Below are positions 725 through 34,196 of a stretch of 64,000 bases of DNA, piece by piece; within the stretch, counting starts at the first letter, position 1; each line of letters opens with the position of its first letter. The stretch is from positions 1 through 64,000 of the IMG/VR virus record IMGVR_UViG_3300031371_000001. One strand, 5' to 3'. Both the position numbers and the translations under genes were made by a program. The notes beneath the pieces were generated by a model, which saw nothing but the letters and a program-made list of their open reading frames with translations, made no database searches and was not told the origin of the DNA. This DNA comes from a virus.

Positions 725-880
725 TGTTCCCTCCGTTGTTCCCGTGTTGTTGTTTCCCGTTGCCATGATTAAGTTATAGCCCGATAGGTATCGGATGTCA
801 AGCCTTAGAGTCGATTATTTTCGGGTCCTATGTCGTTTTTATGCTAAGTCGTTGAAACAATAGGCGAAACAGGAAATCCC
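722..880. repeat. ~150-bp direct repeat, copy 1 (promoter + leader cassette)
   Basis: Near-identical to 1636-1783: cattgttccctccgt...gccatgattaagttat...tgtcaagccttagagtcgattattttcgggtcc...gctaagtc.ttgaaac. Confidence 0.95.
773..801 (-). promoter_or_regulatory. sigma70-type promoter P1 with palindromic operator in the spacer
   Basis: TTGACA-N17-TATAAC; spacer contains CGAT-ACCT-ATCG (782-793). Confidence 0.85.
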
Positions 881-7642: not shown

Positions 7643-9283
7643 CTAATCGTCGGAAGGTTCGGAAGAATCACCGATGATAAGGCGATCAAGGTCTTCAACG
7701 ATCTTCTCCGAAATGCGCCCCATGTAATCCTTCATGAAGTCGTCTTCGGAAGCCAGCTTCGGATCGACTCCTTCAGGAATTTCGACCTTCACCTTGAAGG
7801 TTTTGGCGTCTTTCACTTCTTCGATCGCCGGAACCGTTCGCTTCCAAATGAAACCGTTTTCATCGAAGCGATAAGTTGCGAGGATCACACCGTCGATATC
7901 CTTGAAATCGATCGTGCGATCGCCGTGAAGCGAATCCGTTTCGCGCGTTGCCGAAACGACGTCAAATTTCTTCAGTTCATCCAGCGTAGCAGGTAGATCA
8001 TTGATTTGAATTTCAGCCGGGAAGATTGTAAGACCGTCTTTGAATTCGACTTTCGGCTTTGCTGAAGACGCCTTCTCGATCGTCGTCTCGATTTCTCGCT
8101 TGCCTGCTTCGTCGGACGGCTTCGAGAATTTCGCACGGAAGTCTTCGAGCGATTCGTCTTTCATCGGTTCGTCTTCAGAATCGTGCTTGCCCTTCTCGAA
8201 CAAATCGGGTGGGTCTGTTCCCTTCAATCCGGTGAAGACTCCGATCGTTTTCCCGTCAACAACGATCTCGAAGTCGGGTCTTGCGTGTTCGGGCAAATCG
8301 AACCCAAGCGGTTCGGGGGGCGCCGGCGGCTTCGCCGTCGCGACGAAATCTTCATATCGCCCCGCTTTTTCAAATGCGATGATCGATCTTCTGTATCCGC
8401 GGCCGTCCGACATCCGGATCTTGAAGATCAATCCGAACTCTGAAACTTCAATCCTCCACCGTCCGCTCGAATCAGTCCCTTCATTGATGATCGATAAGCC
8501 GCCCGAATCCATCCCGGCACGATTGAAGGCGCGCATGATTGCCGATCGCAGATCAAGATCCCAAAGCGCCTTCAACTCTTGTTCAAGCACGTCAGCAAGT
8601 TCCGGAGGTTTGGCGATGTCAACGACGGGCGCCGCCCTTTCCTTTATCGTTCGAGCATAGGAACGCATGGCCTGAAGTGCGCGTTCGTGAGTTACTGCGA
8701 ATCGCTTTGAGACTTCCTCCCGTTCGTAGTCAAGCTTGCGAACGTCGAAGCCTACGCTTTCGATCCGCTTGACGGCGGCGGACATCGCTTCGGCCTGAAG
8801 GATTCCGATATCTCCCCCGCCACTATCGATCTTCGCGACTCTGAAAGATGATGTCGGGTAGTGTCCTCCGACTTCGACAGCGAACAGCGTTGCAAGTCGC
8901 CTCTTGTTTTTCGCGTTGTCTATCCAGTCGATCCCGACGACTCCAACCCCGTGTTCGGATACGCGTCCTCCAATCGCCCCATAGCTGAAATCCCAACCCT
9001 CCCCGGGCGAAGCGCCGGCTTTCGTCATGATGTCATTGATCGGTTTGGCAAGCTTCATATAGAACGGGGATCCGACATCCTCCGTGCTCCCCCACGTAAC
9101 TAGCAACCCTGTCAACGATTGTCGCAATCCGATCACGAAGCCTCGTGTCCAATCCGGCAATGGTTCCGGATTCAAGTTCGGGAAACCCGACTTCTTTGGG
9201 GCCGGTCCACGGATAGCTCCCGGATCTTTTGAAAACGCCTCCCGGAATTCTTCGAGCGTGCCGCTTGTCTTCGTCATGCTCAC
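7643..9283 (-). CDS. large mosaic hypothetical protein with two copies of the LE[ED]FRxxF tag
   Basis: 546-aa ORF; LEEFREAF at the N-terminus and MKDESLEDFRAKF internally; GGAGG RBS. Confidence 0.8.
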   Translation of the reverse strand: MSMTKTSGTLEEFREAFSKDPGAIRGPAPKKSGFPNLNPEPLPDWTRGFVIGLRQSLTGLLVTWGSTEDVGSPFYMKLAKPINDIMTKAGASPGEGWDFSYGAIGGRVSEHGVGVVGIDWIDNAKNKRRLATLFAVEVGGHYPTSSFRVAKIDSGGGDIGILQAEAMSAAVKRIESVGFDVRKLDYEREEVSKRFAVTHERALQAMRSYARTIKERAAPVVDIAKPPELADVLEQELKALWDLDLRSAIMRAFNRAGMDSGGLSIINEGTDSSGRWRIEVSEFGLIFKIRMSDGRGYRRSIIAFEKAGRYEDFVATAKPPAPPEPLGFDLPEHARPDFEIVVDGKTIGVFTGLKGTDPPDLFEKGKHDSEDEPMKDESLEDFRAKFSKPSDEAGKREIETTIEKASSAKPKVEFKDGLTIFPAEIQINDLPATLDELKKFDVVSATRETDSLHGDRTIDFKDIDGVILATYRFDENGFIWKRTVPAIEEVKDAKTFKVKVEIPEGVDPKLASEDDFMKDYMGRISEKIVEDLDRLIIGDSSEPSDD

Positions 9284-9342
9284 CTCCAGGATTGCGAGAT
9301 CCAGGACGAAAACGCCACGCTTCGGCGCCCCGCCGTCACGCC

Positions 9343-9429
9343 CCCTAGAATGCGCGTGAATCGCCTCGAAGCACTATCCATGCGAGCATACCTCCGGGCG
9401 CCCTGAAAGCCTTCAGGGGCCGAATGCGG
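9343..9429 (+). repeat. 87-bp dispersed intergenic element, copy C
   Basis: ccctagaatgcgcgtgaatcg...cgccctgaaagccttcaggggccgaatgcgg; same length and ends as copy B. Confidence 0.7.
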
Positions 9430-9446
9430 CGCCGTGGCGTGGCACC

Positions 9447-9716
9447 TCAAACGATCGAGCGAATCCACCCCGCCTCCCCCGTCGAAACGTACCCTAAGCC
9501 GTAGGAGGTGAACACCCCGCGCCCCTCGATCCCGATCACGTCTCCATCCTGTTTCACCTTGTATCCAGCGAGCCTCCACTTGCCGAACCAGCGAAGGCGT
9601 GCGGCCTCCGTGAACTCCGAAGGGAACATCCAGGTTGGAGGGTCCTTGCGTTCCTCCCCGCCTTCCTTGCGAAAGACGTTCCGCAAGTCGTCCAAGTTGC
9701 CGCTTGTGCTGTTCAT
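9447..9716 (-). CDS. hypothetical protein, tag-bearing; paralogue of 9713..9988
   Basis: MNSTSGNLDDLRNVF...FPSEFTE.....W...WRLAGY; GGAGG RBS, ATGA overlap. Confidence 0.75.
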   Translation of the reverse strand: MNSTSGNLDDLRNVFRKEGGEERKDPPTWMFPSEFTEAARLRWFGKWRLAGYKVKQDGDVIGIEGRGVFTSYGLGYVSTGEAGWIRSIV

Positions 9717-9988
9717 AGCTTGCGCCTCCACTTCTTCGCCGGCCCGTTCAAGAAATAGATCGCGTCCTGGATCATGCGTCCGCTTGGACTCACACCATAG
9801 ACGACCGCCGAAAACTCGCTTGTCCTGTTCGCTTCGTATCCCTGCGAACGCCAAAGTTCGATCCATTCGTCAATCAAATCCTCCCTGATTTCCTCCGGGA
9901 AGAAAGTGTTTACGATTGGATCTGGTTTCTGTCCCTTCGCGATCCGAAATAACGCCCGGACTTCTTCTATCGTCGTCGTGTAGATCAT
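9713..9988 (-). CDS. hypothetical protein, tag-bearing
   Basis: MIYTTTIEEVRALF...FPEEIRE.....W...WRSQGY; ATGA overlap with the upstream gene. Confidence 0.75.
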   Translation of the reverse strand: MIYTTTIEEVRALFRIAKGQKPDPIVNTFFPEEIREDLIDEWIELWRSQGYEANRTSEFSAVVYGVSPSGRMIQDAIYFLNGPAKKWRRKL

Positions 9989-10509
9989 GGCGTGTCCCAA
10001 TGATAAAGCTTTCCGTCCTTGCCGCAGACAACACGCTTCGAGATCGCGTCCGCCCAATGGCCGCCCTTCCCCGCCTTCGATGCGTTCAGGATCACGACGT
10101 ATCGCCAGTCCCCATGCCGCGGCGAAGACGTGACGACGATCGCCGGCTTCCAACGACACGTCGATTGACGATCGAAGATCACGAGGCGATCCTCCTGTCC
10201 CTTCCTCGCATGATAGGCGACGGCATAGGCGCAAAGTGCCCGGTCGATCATCCGGTGCCTCGAAACGTGATCGGTCCCACGGAAGACATGGAAGCGAAAC
10301 TTCCTGAAGTTCGGCTGATTGTCCGCCGTCCAGTTGATCGCGTTCACCTGTTCTTGATCGTGGACGCACATTTCGGTTGCTTCCCTGTCGGGAAGAAGAA
10401 ACGTAGGACGGATCCAAGCCTCCCCGTCCGCAACCTTCGGCTTCGGCTTCTTCGGCTTGTCCTTGACCGGCGCGCGGAATTTCTCCCGCAAGTCATCGAT
10501 TCCTGTCAT
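9985..10509 (-). CDS. hypothetical protein, tag-bearing; first gene after P3
   Basis: MTGIDDLREKF; ACAACGGAGG leader. Confidence 0.8.
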   Translation of the reverse strand: MTGIDDLREKFRAPVKDKPKKPKPKVADGEAWIRPTFLLPDREATEMCVHDQEQVNAINWTADNQPNFRKFRFHVFRGTDHVSRHRMIDRALCAYAVAYHARKGQEDRLVIFDRQSTCRWKPAIVVTSSPRHGDWRYVVILNASKAGKGGHWADAISKRVVCGKDGKLYHWDTP

Positions 10510-10532: not shown

Positions 10533-10561
10533 GTTATACCACGATGGGAATCGGTTGTCAA
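10533..10561 (-). promoter_or_regulatory. sigma70-type promoter P3 with operator
   Basis: TTGACA-N17-TATAAC; spacer CGAT-TCCC-ATCG (10542-10553) in the same register as P1/P2. Confidence 0.85.
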
Positions 10562-10563
10562 GC

Positions 10564-10923
10564 CTAATCTTCGGATGGTATCGCTTGCTTACTGTAAGGC
10601 GTAGGGCGGAAGATCCGCTTGTCGGACTCTCGATACGGTCCAACGACGTAAAGCTTCCATTCGTTTCCCTTGCGATTGAACAGGAGGCGCGCGTCCCCCG
10701 TGGCGTCCGACGCGACGATCATTCCTTGTCTTTCGTTCTCCGCAACGGCGGCAACCTTCACCTCGACGCCCCCTCCTTTCAGCCGCGCTTCAACGATCTT
10801 CGCAAGGTCCCGGAGCGAACCGACTTCGATCACCGTCGAGGGTTGCGCGACAGTGATCACCTTCGCGATCCGCTGTCCCAACGCCGCGCCGGCAACCTGG
10901 GGACACTTCTTCCCTTCCTTCAT
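10564..10923 (-). CDS. hypothetical protein
   Basis: AGGAGG RBS, ATGA overlap. Confidence 0.7.
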   Translation of the reverse strand: MKEGKKCPQVAGAALGQRIAKVITVAQPSTVIEVGSLRDLAKIVEARLKGGGVEVKVAAVAENERQGMIVASDATGDARLLFNRKGNEWKLYVVGPYRESDKRIFRPTPYSKQAIPSED

Positions 10924-15580: not shown

Positions 15581-16044
15581 CGTTTGCGTGGGTCCTTGAT
15601 CTTGACGATTTGAGCGAAGGTGATTTCGTCTTCGTCGTCAAGGATGATCGAAACGGGAAGTGCCACTTCACGCCCGAAGACGTTGACGGCTCCACCGAAG
15701 CGGATCGAAGTCAGGACGCCCGTTCGGGTGATCCCTTCCTTTGTGTCAACCGCGATCTTCTTCCCGATAAGGGTCGAAAGATCGATGTCCCATGAGAATA
15801 CAACGTCTGTCGCCATTTGTTCCTCCACCGAATCCCATAGCCTTTGCAGTCGTTGATATATGGGATCGTCCTTCAGTTCAATGCCCTTCAGCTTGCAAAC
15901 AAGATTTCGATCGCGGATCATTTCAGCGAACGATTCGAGCATCAAAGAAACGTCGGGGATCTGCAAGTTACGCTTGACGGTCCCGGCGATTGCCGCCGCG
16001 CCGTCCGCCGCCTCGACTTCCTTTTCTTTCGGTTCGTCCGTCAT
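15577..16044 (-). CDS. hypothetical protein (Sm/SH3-like C-terminus possible)
   Basis: LIGKKIAVDTKEGITRTGVL pattern; ATGA overlap. Confidence 0.65.
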   Translation of the reverse strand: MTDEPKEKEVEAADGAAAIAGTVKRNLQIPDVSLMLESFAEMIRDRNLVCKLKGIELKDDPIYQRLQRLWDSVEEQMATDVVFSWDIDLSTLIGKKIAVDTKEGITRTGVLTSIRFGGAVNVFGREVALPVSIILDDEDEITFAQIVKIKDPRKR

Positions 16045-16595
16045 GATTTCTTTCTGAACAGATCCCGGACGCCTTCAAGATCCTTCGGTGTCGGAACCTC
16101 GATAGGTTCTTCGTCTTCCTCGAAGATCAAGATATCGTCGTCCGCCGTGTCTTCGAGTCGGACGGATTCGCCGCGCCTTCGCTTCTTCGTCTTATAGCCA
16201 GCCTTCGCCTTGTAACCGTCCGGAACATCCGTGGAGTCTTCGACTTCAACGGGTTCGTCAAGAGTCGAAGCAAGCGCAATCGCATTCGCGCGTGTCATTG
16301 GCAGGAGGACAAGTTCATTATGTCCAACCCTCTCGACTTGGAAGTGAAGACGGACCTTCGATGAAGAAGCCCCGCCAACCTCGATCAAGTCGTTGTTGTG
16401 TAACGTCCCAACCGAGAAGAAGACGCCAGAATAGGAACGGGGTTCAACACGTTTCAAGAACTTGCGATCGAATCCGTAATTGGGATCTGTTCCCTGGATC
16501 TTCGCAATGTACTTGACGCCTCCCGGCGCCGCGGCCTCGAATGCTTCGGATTCGATACAAGCGCGACCTCGGATCGTTGTAAGCCTGACTTCCAT
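16041..16595 (-). CDS. hypothetical protein ending in a tag-like helix (LEGVRDLF)
   Basis: YIAKIQGTDPNYGFDRKFL N-domain; acidic linker; C-terminal LEGVRDLFRKKS. Confidence 0.7.
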   Translation of the reverse strand: MEVRLTTIRGRACIESEAFEAAAPGGVKYIAKIQGTDPNYGFDRKFLKRVEPRSYSGVFFSVGTLHNNDLIEVGGASSSKVRLHFQVERVGHNELVLLPMTRANAIALASTLDEPVEVEDSTDVPDGYKAKAGYKTKKRRRGESVRLEDTADDDILIFEEDEEPIEVPTPKDLEGVRDLFRKKS

Positions 16596-24721: not shown

Positions 24722-25792
24722 TCAGTCAAGCAAGGAATCAAGATCGTCGTCTTCGTCGCCGTCGTCCGATCCGCCGTCGTCCGTCCCGGTGTCGTCTTCC
24801 TCCTCCTCCGGGGCTTCGTCGCCCTTCGACTTGCCTCCCGCCTTTTCCTGACATTCCCCGACCATCTTGCAAGCCTCGCAAGCCGGATCGTCTTCGTCGT
24901 AATCGATCCCGAAACAAGGAGGCTTCTTCACCTTGTCCTTCTTCTTCCCGTCGTCCTTCTTCGTCTTCTTCTTCTTCGAGGAGGAGGATGACTTCTTCTT
25001 CTCCGTCTTCTTTTCCTCCCCGTCGTCCGATTCCTCCCCGCCGGCGTCGTCGTCCTCGAACAGATCGTCCGCCTCCTTCGGTTCGTCCTCGACTTCCATC
25101 CCGTCCGCCGCTGCGGCGAGTTCATCGCCCGTCTTCAGCATTCGGACAAGGATCTTGTGACAGTCGCAAGCCCCGTCCTCGACGGCGGCCTCCAGGACCA
25201 TTGCCGCATACTTCTTCGGAAGTGGCTTCGGGTCCTTCAACGACTTCATGTGAGCCATGACGGTGTATTCCGTGTCGTTCTTCTTCCGACCGGAACGCTT
25301 GATCTTGAAGAAGACGGCGCCCTTCAGATCGCAGATCGACTCCCCGACTTCGAGAAGAAGATCGGCAACCCCGTTCCAAACGGAACGCGGAGCAAGGTAG
25401 GGCCGAACCTCGATCGGATCGTACTTTCCCCACTCACGATCGCGCGGTCCCTTCAGTTGGAGCGGAAGGACGGCCATCATGAACTTGACGGAAGGCTTGT
25501 TGCCCTTCTCGCAAAGCGGACAGGTCTTCGGAAGCTTCTTCCCTTCCCCCTTCAGGACGGAGCGGAAGATCGGATCCTTCAGGATTGGGTTCTTCTCCGC
25601 ATTGGCGCAAACGATCCCGGCGTCCCCCGTGTAATGCATCGCAACGGGATAGTAGGGTTCGCTTGCATCCCGGATCGGTGGGCAAAGAAAGATGATATGC
25701 TCCCCCTCCGCAGCGGCGAAGAACGGGGCGCCGTCGCCTCTACCTTGCTTGTATCTGTCCTTGTCTGCGGCGATCTTGTCCTTGTCGATCAT
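24722..25792 (-). CDS. gp32-like single-stranded DNA-binding protein
   Basis: H...C...CPLC metal site, IKRSG...TEY, long acidic tail ending DDDLDSLLD; position between DNA polymerase and SbcCD. Confidence 0.7.
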   Translation of the reverse strand: MIDKDKIAADKDRYKQGRGDGAPFFAAAEGEHIIFLCPPIRDASEPYYPVAMHYTGDAGIVCANAEKNPILKDPIFRSVLKGEGKKLPKTCPLCEKGNKPSVKFMMAVLPLQLKGPRDREWGKYDPIEVRPYLAPRSVWNGVADLLLEVGESICDLKGAVFFKIKRSGRKKNDTEYTVMAHMKSLKDPKPLPKKYAAMVLEAAVEDGACDCHKILVRMLKTGDELAAAADGMEVEDEPKEADDLFEDDDAGGEESDDGEEKKTEKKKSSSSSKKKKTKKDDGKKKDKVKKPPCFGIDYDEDDPACEACKMVGECQEKAGGKSKGDEAPEEEEDDTGTDDGGSDDGDEDDDLDSLLD

Positions 25793-30125: not shown

Positions 30126-30556
30126 TCGTCCAGGAAGAACGGTTCGGGAAGGGTCGGAAGCTCAATCACCCCAACGTCAACAAGCCTCCGGATCATCCTC
30201 GCCGCTTCCTTCGCCTCGCAAGCCGTGAATTTGACAAGTGTTCGATATCGCTTTTTCCTATCGCGAGTCGCCTTCAATGGTGCCGCGTGTTTTGAGACTC
30301 CACTAAACCTATATGGCAAATACATTAGAATCCGATCACCATCGAACCATAACGAAAGGAAAGCGGAGGGTGGATGGGTTCCACCGTTCAAGATCGTGAC
30401 GGTTCGCGCGTGCTGTTCCCCAAGGTGATCCTTGATCCAGAATTGCCCCGTGACGTCGAACCCCTCCTTCGCGAAGCAACGTCCGGGGAATAGTTGTCGG
30501 AATTCCTCCAGGAAGATCGCAACCGCTCGAAGCGCCGCTTCACTCTGATTCGACAA
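30110..30556 (-). CDS. hypothetical protein
   Basis: Fills the gap between the sigma-like gene and PHP; probable TTG start 30556 after GAGGAGG. Confidence 0.55.
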   Translation of the reverse strand: MSNQSEAALRAVAIFLEEFRQLFPGRCFAKEGFDVTGQFWIKDHLGEQHARTVTILNGGTHPPSAFLSLWFDGDRILMYLPYRFSGVSKHAAPLKATRDRKKRYRTLVKFTACEAKEAARMIRRLVDVGVIELPTLPEPFFLDEWRIL

Positions 30557-31049: not shown

Positions 31050-32900
31050 CTACCTACCAAGCGCGCGCCGAAGCTTACGGAACAGGACCCCCGGCAGTTG
31101 CGAGAGATCGTCCACGGTAACGGCGTTCTTGTAATAGTTCGTGATCCCACTATACCGAAGTCCGATCGCGATCACCTCGACGCCCTTGTGATTGTCGATC
31201 CAGCCGGTGATCCGCTTCAAGTGCTGTTGCTGTTTCGTATCAGGTCCACAAATAGGCGATCCGTCCGACAGGACGAAAAGCACCTTGCGCGCCTCCGGGC
31301 GATGAAGAAGACGCTTCGCCGCCCACTCGACGGCTTCGCCGTCGCCGTTCTCGCAATCGGCTTGCGCCGATCCAAGCCGCGTCTTCTCGGTTTCCCATGA
31401 TTCCCCGAACGCCTTGTAAACGTTGAACCGGAAAGGGAGGGTCCTGTCGTATCCGTCGCGGCTCGGCGGCGTACCGCTGTAAACGTTCGTGAATCCGTTG
31501 ATCTCGAACTTGATCCCGATCTGATTCAGCGCCCGGGAAAGTGCGACGACGGCGGCGATCGTGTCGTCCATGTCCCCTGACATCGAACCCGATTCGTCAA
31601 TCAGGATCCCGACCGCTGTATCGGCATAACCGATTTCCCGCTTGTCGTCCCTCTTGAAAACCTTCGTGTTGAACCGGGCAAGCCTCGCAAGCTTCGTCCT
31701 ATCGATCTTCCCATGACGAAGCCCGTAATCCGTCGAGTGATCCGTTGACAGGAGGACAAGACGAAGGCGGCTGGCAAGTGCGCCAACAATCTTCTTCGCC
31801 TTTTCGTCACGAACCCTGAATCTCGCAACGTTCTTCGGCGCCCTGACGATCCTATCGTTTTGGAGTGCGATCGGATGGGTCGAGTAGACCCCGCGTGTTT
31901 CCTCCTCTGCAATCCGCTTCGTTTCTTTGTGAAAGGTCCCGGTTTCTCCGTCCGAACCGGACGCGGCCTTCAGCGCCTTGATCAATCCGGCCAGATTTTC
32001 GGCTTCCTCCTTCGTCAGCTTGATCGCCTTCCCGCCGCTCGCCGCTTCGCCTTCCTTCCCCTCGGAAGCCTCGACGCCAGCCGCGGAACCGCCTTCGCCT
32101 TCCTCCCCTTCGCCTTCGCCGTCCCCGCCGATCGTGATCACAAGGTCCCCCTCCGCTTCGTCGGCGGCCTTGCGCGCCTCCTCCGCTTCATCCCCCATTT
32201 CCTCCAGCCGATCGCAAAGCTCGATCGCAAGATCAAGCGTGTCGTCCGTCCAACGCGATTCTTTAGCCCGGGGAATGAAGTCGGAAAGATGCTCGATAAC
32301 GAAGGCCGCTCCCGCCTGAAGGATTTCATTCTTCGACTCACGAAGCGACGGCGACAGCGCCTCCGCGATGAAAGCCTTTCCAACGGCGTCGGCAAATTCG
32401 GGTGGCTTCGGCTCCGCTTCCAACTTCTCGATCATGAAGAAGCGAGTTCGAGTTAGGTTGACGTGGACACCGGCCCAACGCTTCATTCCCTCCGTCTCGA
32501 TCGATACGTCCTCCAAGACGTTCAACCACATTGGGAGGATCCCGTATTTCTCCGGGTTCGATTTCTTCAATTCGTCGGCCCGCTTCGCGCAAGCCTCCCA
32601 GGTTGCTGACTTCCTCTTGATCGCGTTCTTCAACGCCTTTTCGTTTCGGAGGACGTGCAACCATTCGTGATCGAGTTCCCCGTCAACGATCCACCGTTCG
32701 GCGTACATTTTCGGGAGCGTGATCGTTGAAGTCGTGTCAGTGTAACAGCCCGTCCCGAAGTTCACCTTGATCCCTGTGTTCTTCGAGAACACTCGCGCGA
32801 TCTTCTCGCAATACCTTTCATCAACTTTCTTGCGATAGTGATCGCCAACGTCGATCGTCAGTTCGGAAGGAAGCGGGGTTTCCATCGTTGCGGCCGACAT
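31050..32900 (-). CDS. CobT-like VWA-domain protein (AAA+ partner)
   Basis: DHEWLH and NVLED N-domain, acidic Gly/Glu linker, MIDAS DESGS, LSDG.P. Confidence 0.85.
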   Translation of the reverse strand: MSAATMETPLPSELTIDVGDHYRKKVDERYCEKIARVFSKNTGIKVNFGTGCYTDTTSTITLPKMYAERWIVDGELDHEWLHVLRNEKALKNAIKRKSATWEACAKRADELKKSNPEKYGILPMWLNVLEDVSIETEGMKRWAGVHVNLTRTRFFMIEKLEAEPKPPEFADAVGKAFIAEALSPSLRESKNEILQAGAAFVIEHLSDFIPRAKESRWTDDTLDLAIELCDRLEEMGDEAEEARKAADEAEGDLVITIGGDGEGEGEEGEGGSAAGVEASEGKEGEAASGGKAIKLTKEEAENLAGLIKALKAASGSDGETGTFHKETKRIAEEETRGVYSTHPIALQNDRIVRAPKNVARFRVRDEKAKKIVGALASRLRLVLLSTDHSTDYGLRHGKIDRTKLARLARFNTKVFKRDDKREIGYADTAVGILIDESGSMSGDMDDTIAAVVALSRALNQIGIKFEINGFTNVYSGTPPSRDGYDRTLPFRFNVYKAFGESWETEKTRLGSAQADCENGDGEAVEWAAKRLLHRPEARKVLFVLSDGSPICGPDTKQQQHLKRITGWIDNHKGVEVIAIGLRYSGITNYYKNAVTVDDLSQLPGVLFRKLRRALGR

Positions 32901-32901
32901 C

Positions 32902-34059
32902 TTACAGGCTCCCCGGGATATGGCGCTGAATCACCCCGTCCACGAAGTCCCTGTCCTCCGTCAGCCTGTCCAGGACGGAAAGCTTCGACGCAAGCTTGAA
33001 GTTCTTGAGATCCTGAATCGAGCGCCCCCACGCAATCAGCTTGCGAGTCGAGAACGTGCAAGCGCAATCTTCGTTCTTGAATCCCTGTCGAACGTCGCGC
33101 GCGATCTTGACCATTTTGGAAGCCAGCTTCGGATCGACTCCAAGCTTCTTCAGGATCTCGACCTCGACCTCCTCCGAAGGGTATTCGGTGCGGTAGACCC
33201 TGAAGCGATCGATCGAAGCTTCGTTCAGGATATGGGTTCCGTCGTAAACGACGCCTCCCTCCCCCTTGCCGACCGTGTTCCCGGTTGCAAGGATCCGAAA
33301 CAGCTTGTGCGGCACGATGATCTCGCCCGTGTTCGGAACGGTGAAGTAGCCGTCATTCAAGATTTGCTGAAGGCAAAGGATCGTTCCGCTCGAAGCGGCG
33401 TCCATTTCGTCGCAGATCAACCAGGACCCTTCGATCATCGCCTTGATCAAGATTCCCGGCTTGAAGGTCGTAACCGGGGCGCCGTCCTTCACGTCGATCG
33501 CGTCCTCCCCGATGAAGTGCGATCCGTCCGTGTCGTGTGAAAGGGAAATGTGGCGAATGGGCTGATTCACCATCGCCGCAACCTCCTTCAACAAGGACGT
33601 CTTCCCGCAACCCGTGTCCCCGACAAGGTACAGGGCTTGCTTCGTGCGAATGCAATACGCGATCACCTCCAACCGTTCGTCGTTCGGGTCAACGACGTAT
33701 CCGGGATCGTGCTTCGGGATGAAAGGGTGATCGTCCGCCTTGCGGATCTTCAAGGACTGCGATCCGAAGTAAAGACGATCATTCTCGAAGTCGGGATCGA
33801 CAGGGTGGATATCGTCCGCTTCCGCGGCAAGAGCATTCGCCGCCGCGCGCGAAGCCGTCGCCGTCGCCTTACCCTGATTCTTGAAGGGATTGAATTCGTC
33901 CCTCAGACCGTCCGCCAAGATCGGGGCGTCCGGGAACTTCGCTCGATAGTCGTCCGCCGTGATCCCGTGCTTGCTGTTGAGGTGAACGGGAAGCGCCTTG
34001 AAGTGTCTGCCGCAGATTCGGCAAACGATCTTCCCGTCCGTCGTCGTTGTCGTGTCCAT
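32902..34059 (-). CDS. CobS/MoxR-like AAA+ ATPase with an N-terminal Ros/MucR-like zinc finger
   Basis: CRICG..FKAL..HL..KHG.T.DDYR.KF; GDTGCGKT, ICDEMD, ATGNT, DRF, STRKL. Confidence 0.88.
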   Translation of the reverse strand: MDTTTTTDGKIVCRICGRHFKALPVHLNSKHGITADDYRAKFPDAPILADGLRDEFNPFKNQGKATATASRAAANALAAEADDIHPVDPDFENDRLYFGSQSLKIRKADDHPFIPKHDPGYVVDPNDERLEVIAYCIRTKQALYLVGDTGCGKTSLLKEVAAMVNQPIRHISLSHDTDGSHFIGEDAIDVKDGAPVTTFKPGILIKAMIEGSWLICDEMDAASSGTILCLQQILNDGYFTVPNTGEIIVPHKLFRILATGNTVGKGEGGVVYDGTHILNEASIDRFRVYRTEYPSEEVEVEILKKLGVDPKLASKMVKIARDVRQGFKNEDCACTFSTRKLIAWGRSIQDLKNFKLASKLSVLDRLTEDRDFVDGVIQRHIPGSL

Positions 34060-34100
34060 TGAACCCTCCGTTGTTCCGTTGTTTCCCATAACCTACTAAC

Positions 34101-34129
34101 CTTATAGCCTGTTACCTTTCGAGAGTCAA
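34101..34129 (-). promoter_or_regulatory. sigma70-type promoter P4 with degenerate operator
   Basis: TTGACT-N17-TATAAG; spacer CGAAAGGTAACA in the same register; GGAACAACGGAGG leader. Confidence 0.75.
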
Positions 34130-34196
34130 GCCGAAAAGCCGATTACTATACGTTTATAGCCTAAATGTACGAAATGGTTAGGAATTCGGAAGGTAG

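Follow-up and report, generated by a model that had tools for sequence, protein, structure and literature searches.

In phage T4, a capsid-targeting sequence (CTS) of about ten residues forms the N-terminal propeptide of the internal proteins IPI-III, and is cleaved by the prohead protease (PMC9026906, PMC3012670). Its carriers are late virion proteins, the mature parts of which are fast-evolving accessory or anti-defence proteins. Encapsulin cargo-loading peptides (CLPs) may stand at either terminus, and suffice to send different cargo to an HK97-fold shell (PMC7355545). Clamp motifs, including the β-clamp CBM and the PIP box (PMC11139829) as well as those of the T4 gp45 clients (PMC2988020), represent a third arrangement: one short linear motif (SLiM), present in the disordered ends of many proteins, addresses one hub.

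A different mode of recognition is found in MoxR/VWA systems, such as CbbQ/CbbO, Mdn1(Rea1)-MIDAS (PMC4660213), and the vWA-MoxR conflict systems (PMC7159879). Here, the MIDAS site of the VWA domain grips a single acidic side chain or peptide of its client, and remodelling of the client falls to the AAA+ ring. MoxR-VWA pairs have been proposed to capture peptides (PMC4660213, PMC7159879).

The uncultivated salt-marsh phage considered here, whose genome is one circular contig of ~100.4 kb, carries a peptide tag that invites comparison with each of these systems. A preliminary description covered the window, a stretch of 64,000 nucleotides (positions 1 to 64,000 of IMG/VR record IMGVR_UViG_3300031371_000001), and named six copies, in genes A, B, C, D (two copies), and E. 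All six are present, on the minus strand. The set is larger than reported, however: the whole genome encodes 13 copies of G-[ST]-[LI]-[DE]-[DE]-Φ-R-x-x-F-[SR]-K-P in 12 proteins, and seven of these copies (in F, G, H, I, J, K, and L) lie outside the window. The carriers are as follows.

9985-10509, minus strand: gene A, 174 aa; tag IDDLREKFRA (10471..10500, minus strand; residues 4-13; protein start MTG-IDDLREKF-R), then linker PVKDKPKKPKPK, then an ORFan body
9713-9988, minus strand: gene B, 91 aa, a weak paralogue of C; tag IEEVRALFRI (9941..9970, minus strand; protein start MIYTTT-IEEVRALF-R)
9447-9716, minus strand: gene C, 89 aa; tag LDDLRNVFRK (9666..9695, minus strand; protein start MNSTSGN-LDDLRNVF-R)
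7643-9277, minus strand: gene D, 544 aa; tag D1 LEEFREAFSK (9227..9256, minus strand; residues 8-17; protein start MTKTSGT-LEEFREAF-S) and tag D2 LEDFRAKFSK (8120..8149, minus strand; residues 377-386; MKDES-LEDFRAKF-S, with Met at 8164)
16041-16595, minus strand: gene E, 184 aa, between a uracil-DNA glycosylase gene and a kinase/phosphatase-type gene; C-terminal tag LEGVRDLFRK (16050..16079, minus strand), followed by KS and the stop (protein end LEGVRDLFRKKS)
76.9-78.3 kb: gene L
83.6-84.4 kb: gene K
95235-100051: genes F, G, H, I, and J, translationally coupled

The ATG at 8164 was considered as a second start within gene D and rejected: no Shine-Dalgarno sequence precedes it, so D2 is an internal tag. 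Overall, seven tags are N-terminal, one is near the N-terminus, three are internal or between domains, and two are C-terminal.

A chance origin of the motif is excluded. The regular expression originally proposed matches ten times in the genome, always in minus-strand frames, whereas 2000 residue shuffles gave 0.04 matches on average and never more than 1; of the ten, four fall at 64001-100651, in DNA outside the window. A profile built from the copies returns 13 hits at 21-29 bits, the next best scoring 8.5 bits, and in leave-one-out profiles the thirteenth hit stood above background in every round. Five columns admit no exception: L/I at position 0; D/E at +1 (13/13); R at +4; F at +7; and R/S at +8. 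Others are looser, with an acidic residue at +2 in nine of the 13 tags, G at -2 in seven, S or T at -1 in eight, and Pro at +10 or +11 in ten. Identity among the copies is 40% at codon position 3 versus 67% at positions 1 and 2, showing that the protein, and not a DNA repeat, is what is conserved. An artefact of repeated DNA or of the promoter cassettes was rejected on this ground and because the coupled genes B, C, and G-J have no cassette.

The earlier suggestion of a peptide address is partly supported, in that the tags behave as portable address or docking peptides. They accompany dissimilar bodies and, whether terminal or within linkers, have Gly/Ser and Pro as boundaries and disorder-type flanks. 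The Lys/Pro-rich linker noted previously is likewise evident: the flanks are rich in K, P, E, and D (fraction 0.42, versus 0.25 for background), whereas hydrophobic residues are scarce in them (0.21 versus 0.32). The bodies themselves have no detectable mutual similarity except within the pairs I/J, B/C, and F/G. Most are ORFans; five carriers contain zinc ribbons, in the order tag-linker-zinc ribbon, and one contains an OB fold. "Effectors", the term of the preliminary description, is a putative label for such proteins. Together, I and J comprise about 15 zinc-ribbon modules. Pfam and PHROGs searches of the carriers and their neighbours returned only zinc ribbons and DUF2958, and no homologue was found among 5.8 billion proteins for D or G, nor in IMG/VR for D. 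For D and A, the ESM Atlas gave poor models and zero hits, and the AF2 model of D alone (pLDDT 34) was unusable.

Carrier L provides the only confident carrier model (AF2, 20-sequence alignment; mean pLDDT 84.7). Residues 1-17 fall below pLDDT 50, with the tag forming a helix at residues 5-11, and the body exceeds 90 from about residue 21. The model thus places the tag, as a short helix, in a low-confidence tail that is separate from the confident body. Orthologues of L from other metagenomes (40-50% identity; the family is absent from IMG/VR) retain an N-terminal Φ-x-D-Φ-R-x-K-F. Conservation in homologues, raised in the preliminary description, goes no further than the spacing, the R, and the F, and does not exceed that of the remaining protein; these N-termini score below 0 against the tag profile of this phage.

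Promoter context also unites most of the tagged genes. Two of the promoter regions involved are these.

10533..10561, minus strand: promoter P3, TTGACA-17-TATAAC with spacer CGAT-N4-ATCG, then leader ACAACGGAGG and the ATG of gene A
773..801, minus strand: promoter cassette P1, leading via gene 371-724 and junction gene Z, which spans the contig ends, into F-G-H-I-J

P3 is one of five related cassettes, at 801, 1706, 10561, 34129, and 79039. Eleven of the 13 tags are encoded in three operons behind the σ70-type promoter/operator cassettes P1, P3, and P5, and P4, a cassette of the same type, drives the phage cobS and cobT genes. The tagged set is co-regulated through this shared cassette type. 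Within operons, F-J and A-C are translationally coupled through 4-nt overlaps, the stop of A with the start of B, and the stop of B with the start of C, each overlapping by ATGA. The carriers map at 7.6-10.5, 16, 77-78, 84, and 95-100 kb, away from the capsid gene (62827-64026), which has its own promoter without the operator; the head genes occupy 62.8-75 kb. A shared cassette and co-regulation are compatible with any early function.

Together, these results favour a general model, to which a probability of about 0.5 may be given, in which the tag is a short linear docking motif, private to this lineage, and a single shared partner reads every copy. The tag would form an amphipathic helix of two to three turns, with G-[ST] as its cap and K-P at its end; Leu/Ile(0), Φ(+3), Arg(+4), and Phe(+7) would share a face, and +1 is acidic in every copy. 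A flexible Lys/Pro/Glu-rich tether would hold this helix at the end of, or between the domains of, 12 co-regulated accessory proteins, which the partner could then recruit or handle as a group. The motif, its statistics, its placement, its detachment in L, and the co-regulation are observed; the single reader is a proposed, if most likely, partner. The tag was kept while the bodies diverged beyond recognition and synonymous sites were randomised, which points to selection acting on the tag. As the motif is unused elsewhere in the data searched, a phage-encoded reader is more likely than a conserved host hub.

Which protein might serve as reader? The preliminary description listed the phage AAA+/VWA machine among possible destinations, and two genes are relevant.

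31050..32900, minus strand: CobT-like protein, 616 aa, with a C-terminal VWA domain and an intact MIDAS (LIDESGSMSG); CobT_C E=1.8e-28; candidate reader
32902..34089, minus strand: CobS-like MoxR AAA+ protein (AAA_5 + CbbQ_C), bearing a ROS/MucR zinc finger at its N-terminus; its gene is the first after P4; putative partner of the reader

This co-regulated pair, a VWA/MIDAS adaptor with a MoxR AAA+ ring, is the first candidate for the reader, though a tentative one. What survives of the earlier proposal is circumstantial, namely the common cassette type and the intact MIDAS. As in known MoxR/VWA systems, a VWA protein with an intact DxSxS MIDAS motif is encoded next to a MoxR AAA+ protein, and the tag has an invariant acidic residue, the exposure of which is seen in the L model only. 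The metal site of the MIDAS would be completed by the +1 carboxylate, with specificity coming from the hydrophobic face. By extension, the tag could be a client handle: the CobT MIDAS would grip the acidic residue and, early in infection, a DNA-tethered CobS ring would load, unfold, or release a dozen tagged zinc-ribbon and OB-fold proteins. This fuller scheme is rather unlikely. Counting against the CobT reading, MIDAS binds extended or unstructured peptides and not a helical face (PMC7159879). No MoxR-VWA system is known in which a dozen clients share a helical tag. The cobS and cobT genes also occur in many phages that are not reported to carry such tags.

Other explanations compete with a docking helix read by one partner. 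The preliminary description had suggested the procapsid, with co-injection of the carriers; the tag would then be a capsid-targeting or cargo-loading peptide that binds scaffold, inner capsid, or portal, so that carriers are packed in proheads. The architecture is indeed that of the T4 CTS and encapsulin CLPs (PMC9026906, PMC7355545): like the former, it is an address peptide of about ten residues on otherwise diverse phage proteins; like the latter, a terminal peptide with a flexible linker, common to different proteins. An HK97-type head module, including an XkdF-type protease, is also encoded by the phage. Nevertheless, the gene context disfavours procapsid targeting, since the tags belong to cassette operons shared with cobS/cobT and not to the head module, far from the head genes and under an operator that the capsid promoter lacks; nor do carrier genes adjoin the capsid gene, as encapsulin cargo genes adjoin that of the shell. 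Placement differs too: the T4 CTS is strictly N-terminal, and internal copies, of which there are three here, are not known for encapsulin CLPs. There is no consistent T4-type cleavage site, L/I-x-E occurring after the tag in 0/13 copies and inside it in only 4/13, with the proviso that L/I-x-E is the T4 rule and the XkdF-type protease of this phage may differ. Finally, a zinc-ribbon array of 447 aa and a DNA-binding protein with an OB fold would have to be among the cargo. Packaging for co-injection is consequently an improbable role. Assembly is another alternative: tags would bind each other, or the zinc-ribbon repeats of I and J, to build one large hetero-complex or condensate in place of docking on a separate reader. 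The charge pattern of the tag is self-complementary (acidic N-half, basic C-half), the overlaps within F-J and A-C suggest stoichiometric co-production, D is multivalent by virtue of its two tags, and the ribbon-bearing carriers bring some 15 I/J modules to face 13 tags. Yet a helix of about ten residues is short for stable pairing, and E, K, and L are encoded elsewhere, in other operons, which leaves this assembly doubtful.

Viruses commonly mimic host SLiMs, and the operons, with their σ70 consensus promoters, look early. The tag might accordingly dock on a conserved host hub (RNA polymerase, protease, chaperone, clamp, or SSB) for host takeover, as had also been suggested. A host hub predicts that the motif occurs elsewhere, however, and none was found in the databases searched; one strict DNA pattern gave 2 single hits in IMG/VR, 63 in JGI metagenomes, and 50 in GTDB genomes (596 Gb), all at chance level. 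The clamp motifs Qφx[L/M][F/L], Qφx[L/M]x[F/L], and QxxφxxΩΩ (consensus in PMC11139829) are absent from all carriers, which are ORFans rather than the polymerase, helicase, or primase. The DnaN family (PF00712) has no match in the phage genome, though a divergent clamp could escape this search and the host clamp could serve instead; the 356-aa, acidic-tailed ORFan after DnaE (24722-25792) likewise gave no match. Mimicry of the RNAP β flap-tip helix (LLRAIFGEK) was rejected, since both profile and PSSM miss E. coli RpoB 901-909. Docking on a host hub is thus a distinctly unlikely function. Less probable still is a shared degron or processing signal, or a relic of a common N-terminal module without joint function. 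Terminal, exposed placement would suit a degron, and the paralogues I/J, B/C, and F/G indicate that duplication spread some copies; but retention of the tag despite diverged bodies and randomised synonymous sites speaks against both, and internal copies fit terminal degrons poorly.

The motif appears to be confined to this phage in the data searched. Scored against 8000 word-sharing candidates from 5.8 billion proteins, the tag profile recovered the 12 proteins of this phage and no others; neither those 5.8 billion proteins nor IMG/VR, JGI metagenomes, or GTDB genomes yielded a comparable tag set, and the full set is known from one genome only. A sequence search of the PDB with the profile gave nothing meaningful. 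The preliminary description knew of no account of this motif, and no published one was found here either. Where the context of strict-pattern hits could be identified by eye, they lay inside globular stretches resembling SOD, HisF, and ABC transporters.

About a tenth of the phage's genes, which encode roughly 110 proteins, are marked by one peptide, in what would be a hub-and-spoke arrangement of accessory proteins. Ordinary annotation would miss such an arrangement, since every carrier is an ORFan. If there is one reader, a single interaction assay would place 12 proteins of unassigned function in a common pathway. If the reader is CobS/CobT, the phage pair would acquire a concrete, testable role, as the first multi-client "tag code" for MoxR-VWA proteins. 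Being short, autonomous, and placed at either end, the tag could also serve as a portable recruitment handle.

The nearest IMG/VR terminase is 25% identical. The phage is present in three salt-marsh DNA runs and listed in no RNA run; it is identical in all three, without variants.

Twelve proteins of this phage (A to L) share a ten-residue helical peptide, the tag, in 13 copies (D carries two, D1 and D2). We read the tag as a docking or address peptide, with a probability of about one in two, and infer a reader for it. This reading follows from its form and setting: a short, capped amphipathic helix; a flexible tether; unrelated protein bodies; and placement at either end or between domains.

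Tag carriers and placement of the tag (N-terminal, residues 4-10)
9985-10509, minus strand: A, N-terminal
9713-9988, minus strand: B, N-terminal
9447-9716, minus strand: C, N-terminal
7643-9277, minus strand: D, N-terminal (D1) and inter-domain (D2)
16041-16595, minus strand: E, four residues ahead of the stop
95.2-100.1 kb: F, four residues ahead of the stop; G and H, inter-domain; I and J, N-terminal
83.6-84.4 kb: K, near the N-terminus, start codon uncertain
76.9-78.3 kb: L, N-terminal

The peptides encoded by the four genes behind promoter P3 and by gene E match exactly those quoted in the preliminary description. The second copy in D, reported there to follow an internal Met, is also present, but no ribosome-binding site precedes that Met. 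The start of L is ATG 78309, which a strong Shine-Dalgarno sequence precedes and which the database gene call also gives.

Alignment of the copies gives the extended consensus G(-2)-[ST](-1)-[LI](0)-[DE](+1)-[DE](+2)-Φ(+3)-R(+4)-x-x-F(+7)-[SR](+8)-K(+9)-P(+10 or +11), with positions 0, +1, +4, +7, and +8 exceptionless across all 13. The Ser/Thr cap, acidic start, basic end, and closing Pro are as expected for a short autonomous helix, in which residues 0, +3, +4, and +7 would, by helix geometry, share one face. Its flanks, 20 residues each way, are rich in K/P/E/D (0.42 vs 0.25) and poor in hydrophobic residues (0.21 vs 0.32). Identity among copies is 40% at third codon positions vs 67% at positions 1 and 2, so it is the peptide that is under selection rather than a DNA element.

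The motif first proposed, [IL][DE][DE][LVF]RxxF, matches ten times in the six-frame translation, always in minus-strand frames. Its enrichment is borne out: 2000 residue shuffles of the minus-strand proteome gave a mean of 0.04 matches and a maximum of 1. Four of the ten lie at 64-100 kb, beyond the sequence from which the motif was drawn, and so provide an independent test. Looser searches bring in E (LEGVRDLF), H (LEAVRDAF), I (LERMRSLF), and L (IETTRSLF). On a profile of the 13 copies, each scores 21-29 bits, and no other segment of the six-frame translation exceeds 8.5; with leave-one-out profiles, the thirteenth match stood above background in every round. One strict match, LEEFRQLF in a 183-aa protein (30488-30511, minus strand), scores 3 bits and has neither the cap, the [SR]K-P ending, nor tag-type flanks; it was set aside as probably due to chance. 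The tag is absent from the recognisable replication, repair, packaging, and virion proteins of the phage.

Outside this phage, the profile was compared with proteins above 70 aa in a collection of 5.8 billion (8000 word-sharing candidates scored), and recovered the phage's own 12 proteins only. A strict back-translated pattern gave single matches near chance expectation (2 in IMG/VR, 63 in JGI metagenomes, 50 in 596 Gb of GTDB genomes), with no stretch in these collections holding two; matches whose context could be identified by eye fell within globular proteins (SOD-, HisF-, and ABC-transporter-like stretches). Two orthologues of L with N-termini, 50% and 40% identical, lie on JGI/IMG contigs of 4.8 and 2.7 kb, and begin ...SATVIDIRAKFTGK and MTTQITDIRSKFINK. 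Both keep the hydrophobic spacing, Asp, Arg, and Phe in place; the remainder of the peptide differs, and they therefore score below zero on this phage's profile. These N-termini are compatible with, without proving, a re-spelled tag in relatives of the phage. Docking peptides common to several proteins are familiar (CTS, CLP, clamp-binding motifs, acidic tails); for this sequence, its carriers, or its context, no description was found in the libraries and literature covered.

In all-against-all BLASTP, I matches J (zinc-ribbon arrays, E=4e-18), B matches C weakly, and the N-domains of F and G match each other; the other pairs align at the tag only. Pfam and PHROGs identify zinc ribbons in G-K and nothing else. 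I (447 aa, about 7-9 repeats) and J (299 aa, about 6) are paralogous arrays of CPxC ... CxxCGxx[WYF] (L002 11235-13474, minus strand; L001 and L002 are stretches of the record beyond the window). D and G have zero homologues among 5.8 billion proteins, and the single-sequence model of D was unusable. L has relatives, and AlphaFold2 with a 20-sequence alignment gave a confident model (mean pLDDT 84.7). Model comparison identifies its C-terminal domain (364-459) as an OB fold resembling RPA, SSB, PriB, and the PolC OB domain (VIA: Z 8.4 with rmsd 2.1-2.9 across 78-91 residues; Foldseek: TM about 0.6 against SSBs). Residues 1-17 have pLDDT <50 and include a short helix (5-11), the tag; pLDDT exceeds 90 from about residue 21. 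Direct structural indication of the tag as a free helix on a tether, outside the fold, comes from this model alone. L (L001 12930-14309, minus strand) also contains a Cys-rich domain, DWRPL...CxLCGHxP...VGSEC, which is conserved and recurs in 18 further metagenomic proteins.

The virus record is a single sequence of 100,651 bp (98% complete by CheckV), its first 64 kb being the window, from salt-marsh metagenomes; the identical sequence occurs in three runs at differing depths. Positions 1-203 recur at 100449-100651 (L002 16449-16651) with a single mismatch over the 203 bp, which makes the genome, of about 100.4 kb, circular or circularly permuted. Gene Z (about 252 aa) spans the junction and links promoter P1 with the F-J operon. 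Nearly all genes lie on the minus strand. Those recognised include terminase, portal, and an XkdF-type protease fusion (packaging and head); split DnaE, DnaB-type helicase, primase, UvsW-like helicase, RuvC, HU-like protein, uracil-DNA glycosylase, and methylases (replication and repair); and a CobS-like MoxR AAA+ gene adjoining a CobT-like VWA gene.

Five near-identical promoter cassettes, and the genes that follow
773-815 (P1, at 801): gene 371-724, Z, then F-G-H-I-J, successive genes overlapping by 4 nt
1678-1720 (P2, at 1706)
10533-10575 (P3, at 10561): A-B-C, probably D
34101-34143 (P4, at 34129): CobS-like (32902-34089, minus strand) and CobT-like (31050-32900, minus strand) genes
L001 15011-15053 (P5, at 79039): small gene, DUF2958 gene (L001 14368-14754, minus strand; upstream neighbour of L), then L

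The cassettes follow the pattern GGCTTGAC(A)-17-TATAA(C), in most cases containing a CGAT-N4-ATCG spacer, then a leader ending ACGGAGG. Three of the five (P1, P3, P5) precede 11 of the 13 tags, and a fourth (P4) drives the AAA+/VWA pair. ATGA overlaps join A to B and B to C; D starts 165 nt later. E is flanked by the uracil-DNA glycosylase gene and by a gene of kinase/phosphatase type. The capsid gene has a separate promoter without operator. At four cassettes an Asn/Gly-rich leader peptide (MATGNNN..., MGNNG...) is in frame with the Shine-Dalgarno-led start, its ATG 7 nt past the -10 box in P1, P2, and P5 and further downstream in P4; the same leader precedes an L orthologue from another metagenome (P0015).

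The addressing proposal of the preliminary description stands at even odds. Procapsid targeting on the pattern of the T4 CTS or of encapsulin (PMC9026906, PMC7355545) agrees with the tag architecture only: operon context disagrees, some copies are internal, and a cleavage site is missing. If the destination were a conserved host hub, proteins of hosts or of other phages should carry the motif, and the searches above did not find it there; a phage-encoded reader therefore seems more likely. The carriers do not match the β-clamp/PIP consensus (PMC11139829), and mimicry of the β flap-tip helix was tested and likewise rejected. Self-assembly through contacts between tags, or between tag and zinc ribbon, is a serious rival, favored by the translational coupling of carrier genes and by the two tags of D.

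Circumstantial evidence makes CobT the leading candidate for a phage-encoded reader of the tag, and likewise favors the AAA+/VWA machine as destination. CobT shares its cassette type with the tag operons and retains an intact MIDAS motif (LIDESGSMSG), which could engage the tag's invariant acidic residue: a MIDAS site holds its client through an acidic side chain (PMC4660213), and MoxR-VWA pairs are proposed to capture peptides (PMC7159879). Against CobT, the peptides that MIDAS binds are, in the latter source, extended or unstructured rather than helical faces. A ROS/MucR-type zinc finger at the N-terminus of the CobS-like protein (E=3.5e-8) points to an AAA+ ring tethered to DNA; such a DNA-binding finger would suit carriers that look like nucleic-acid binders.

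K (L002 1-384 / L001 19605-20000) contains two copies of a cysteine mini-domain, C[FH]x[IV]D[YF]-x5-7-CxxC-x5-C; single copies lie in a plus-strand 198-aa gene (L002 7918) and, at 24916, in a 356-aa ORFan (24722-25792, minus strand) that follows DnaE and the HU-like gene. This ORFan, without match in Pfam, PHROG, or PDB, is rich in Lys and Ser over a long stretch, and its acidic tail, with DEDDDLDSLLD at the end, resembles those of phage SSBs. A 452-aa protein (L001 94-1452, minus strand), encoded between the capsid gene and the XkdF-type protease fusion, matches a PHROG head-maturation-protease family (E=5e-9), and may represent a second protease or scaffold-like gene.
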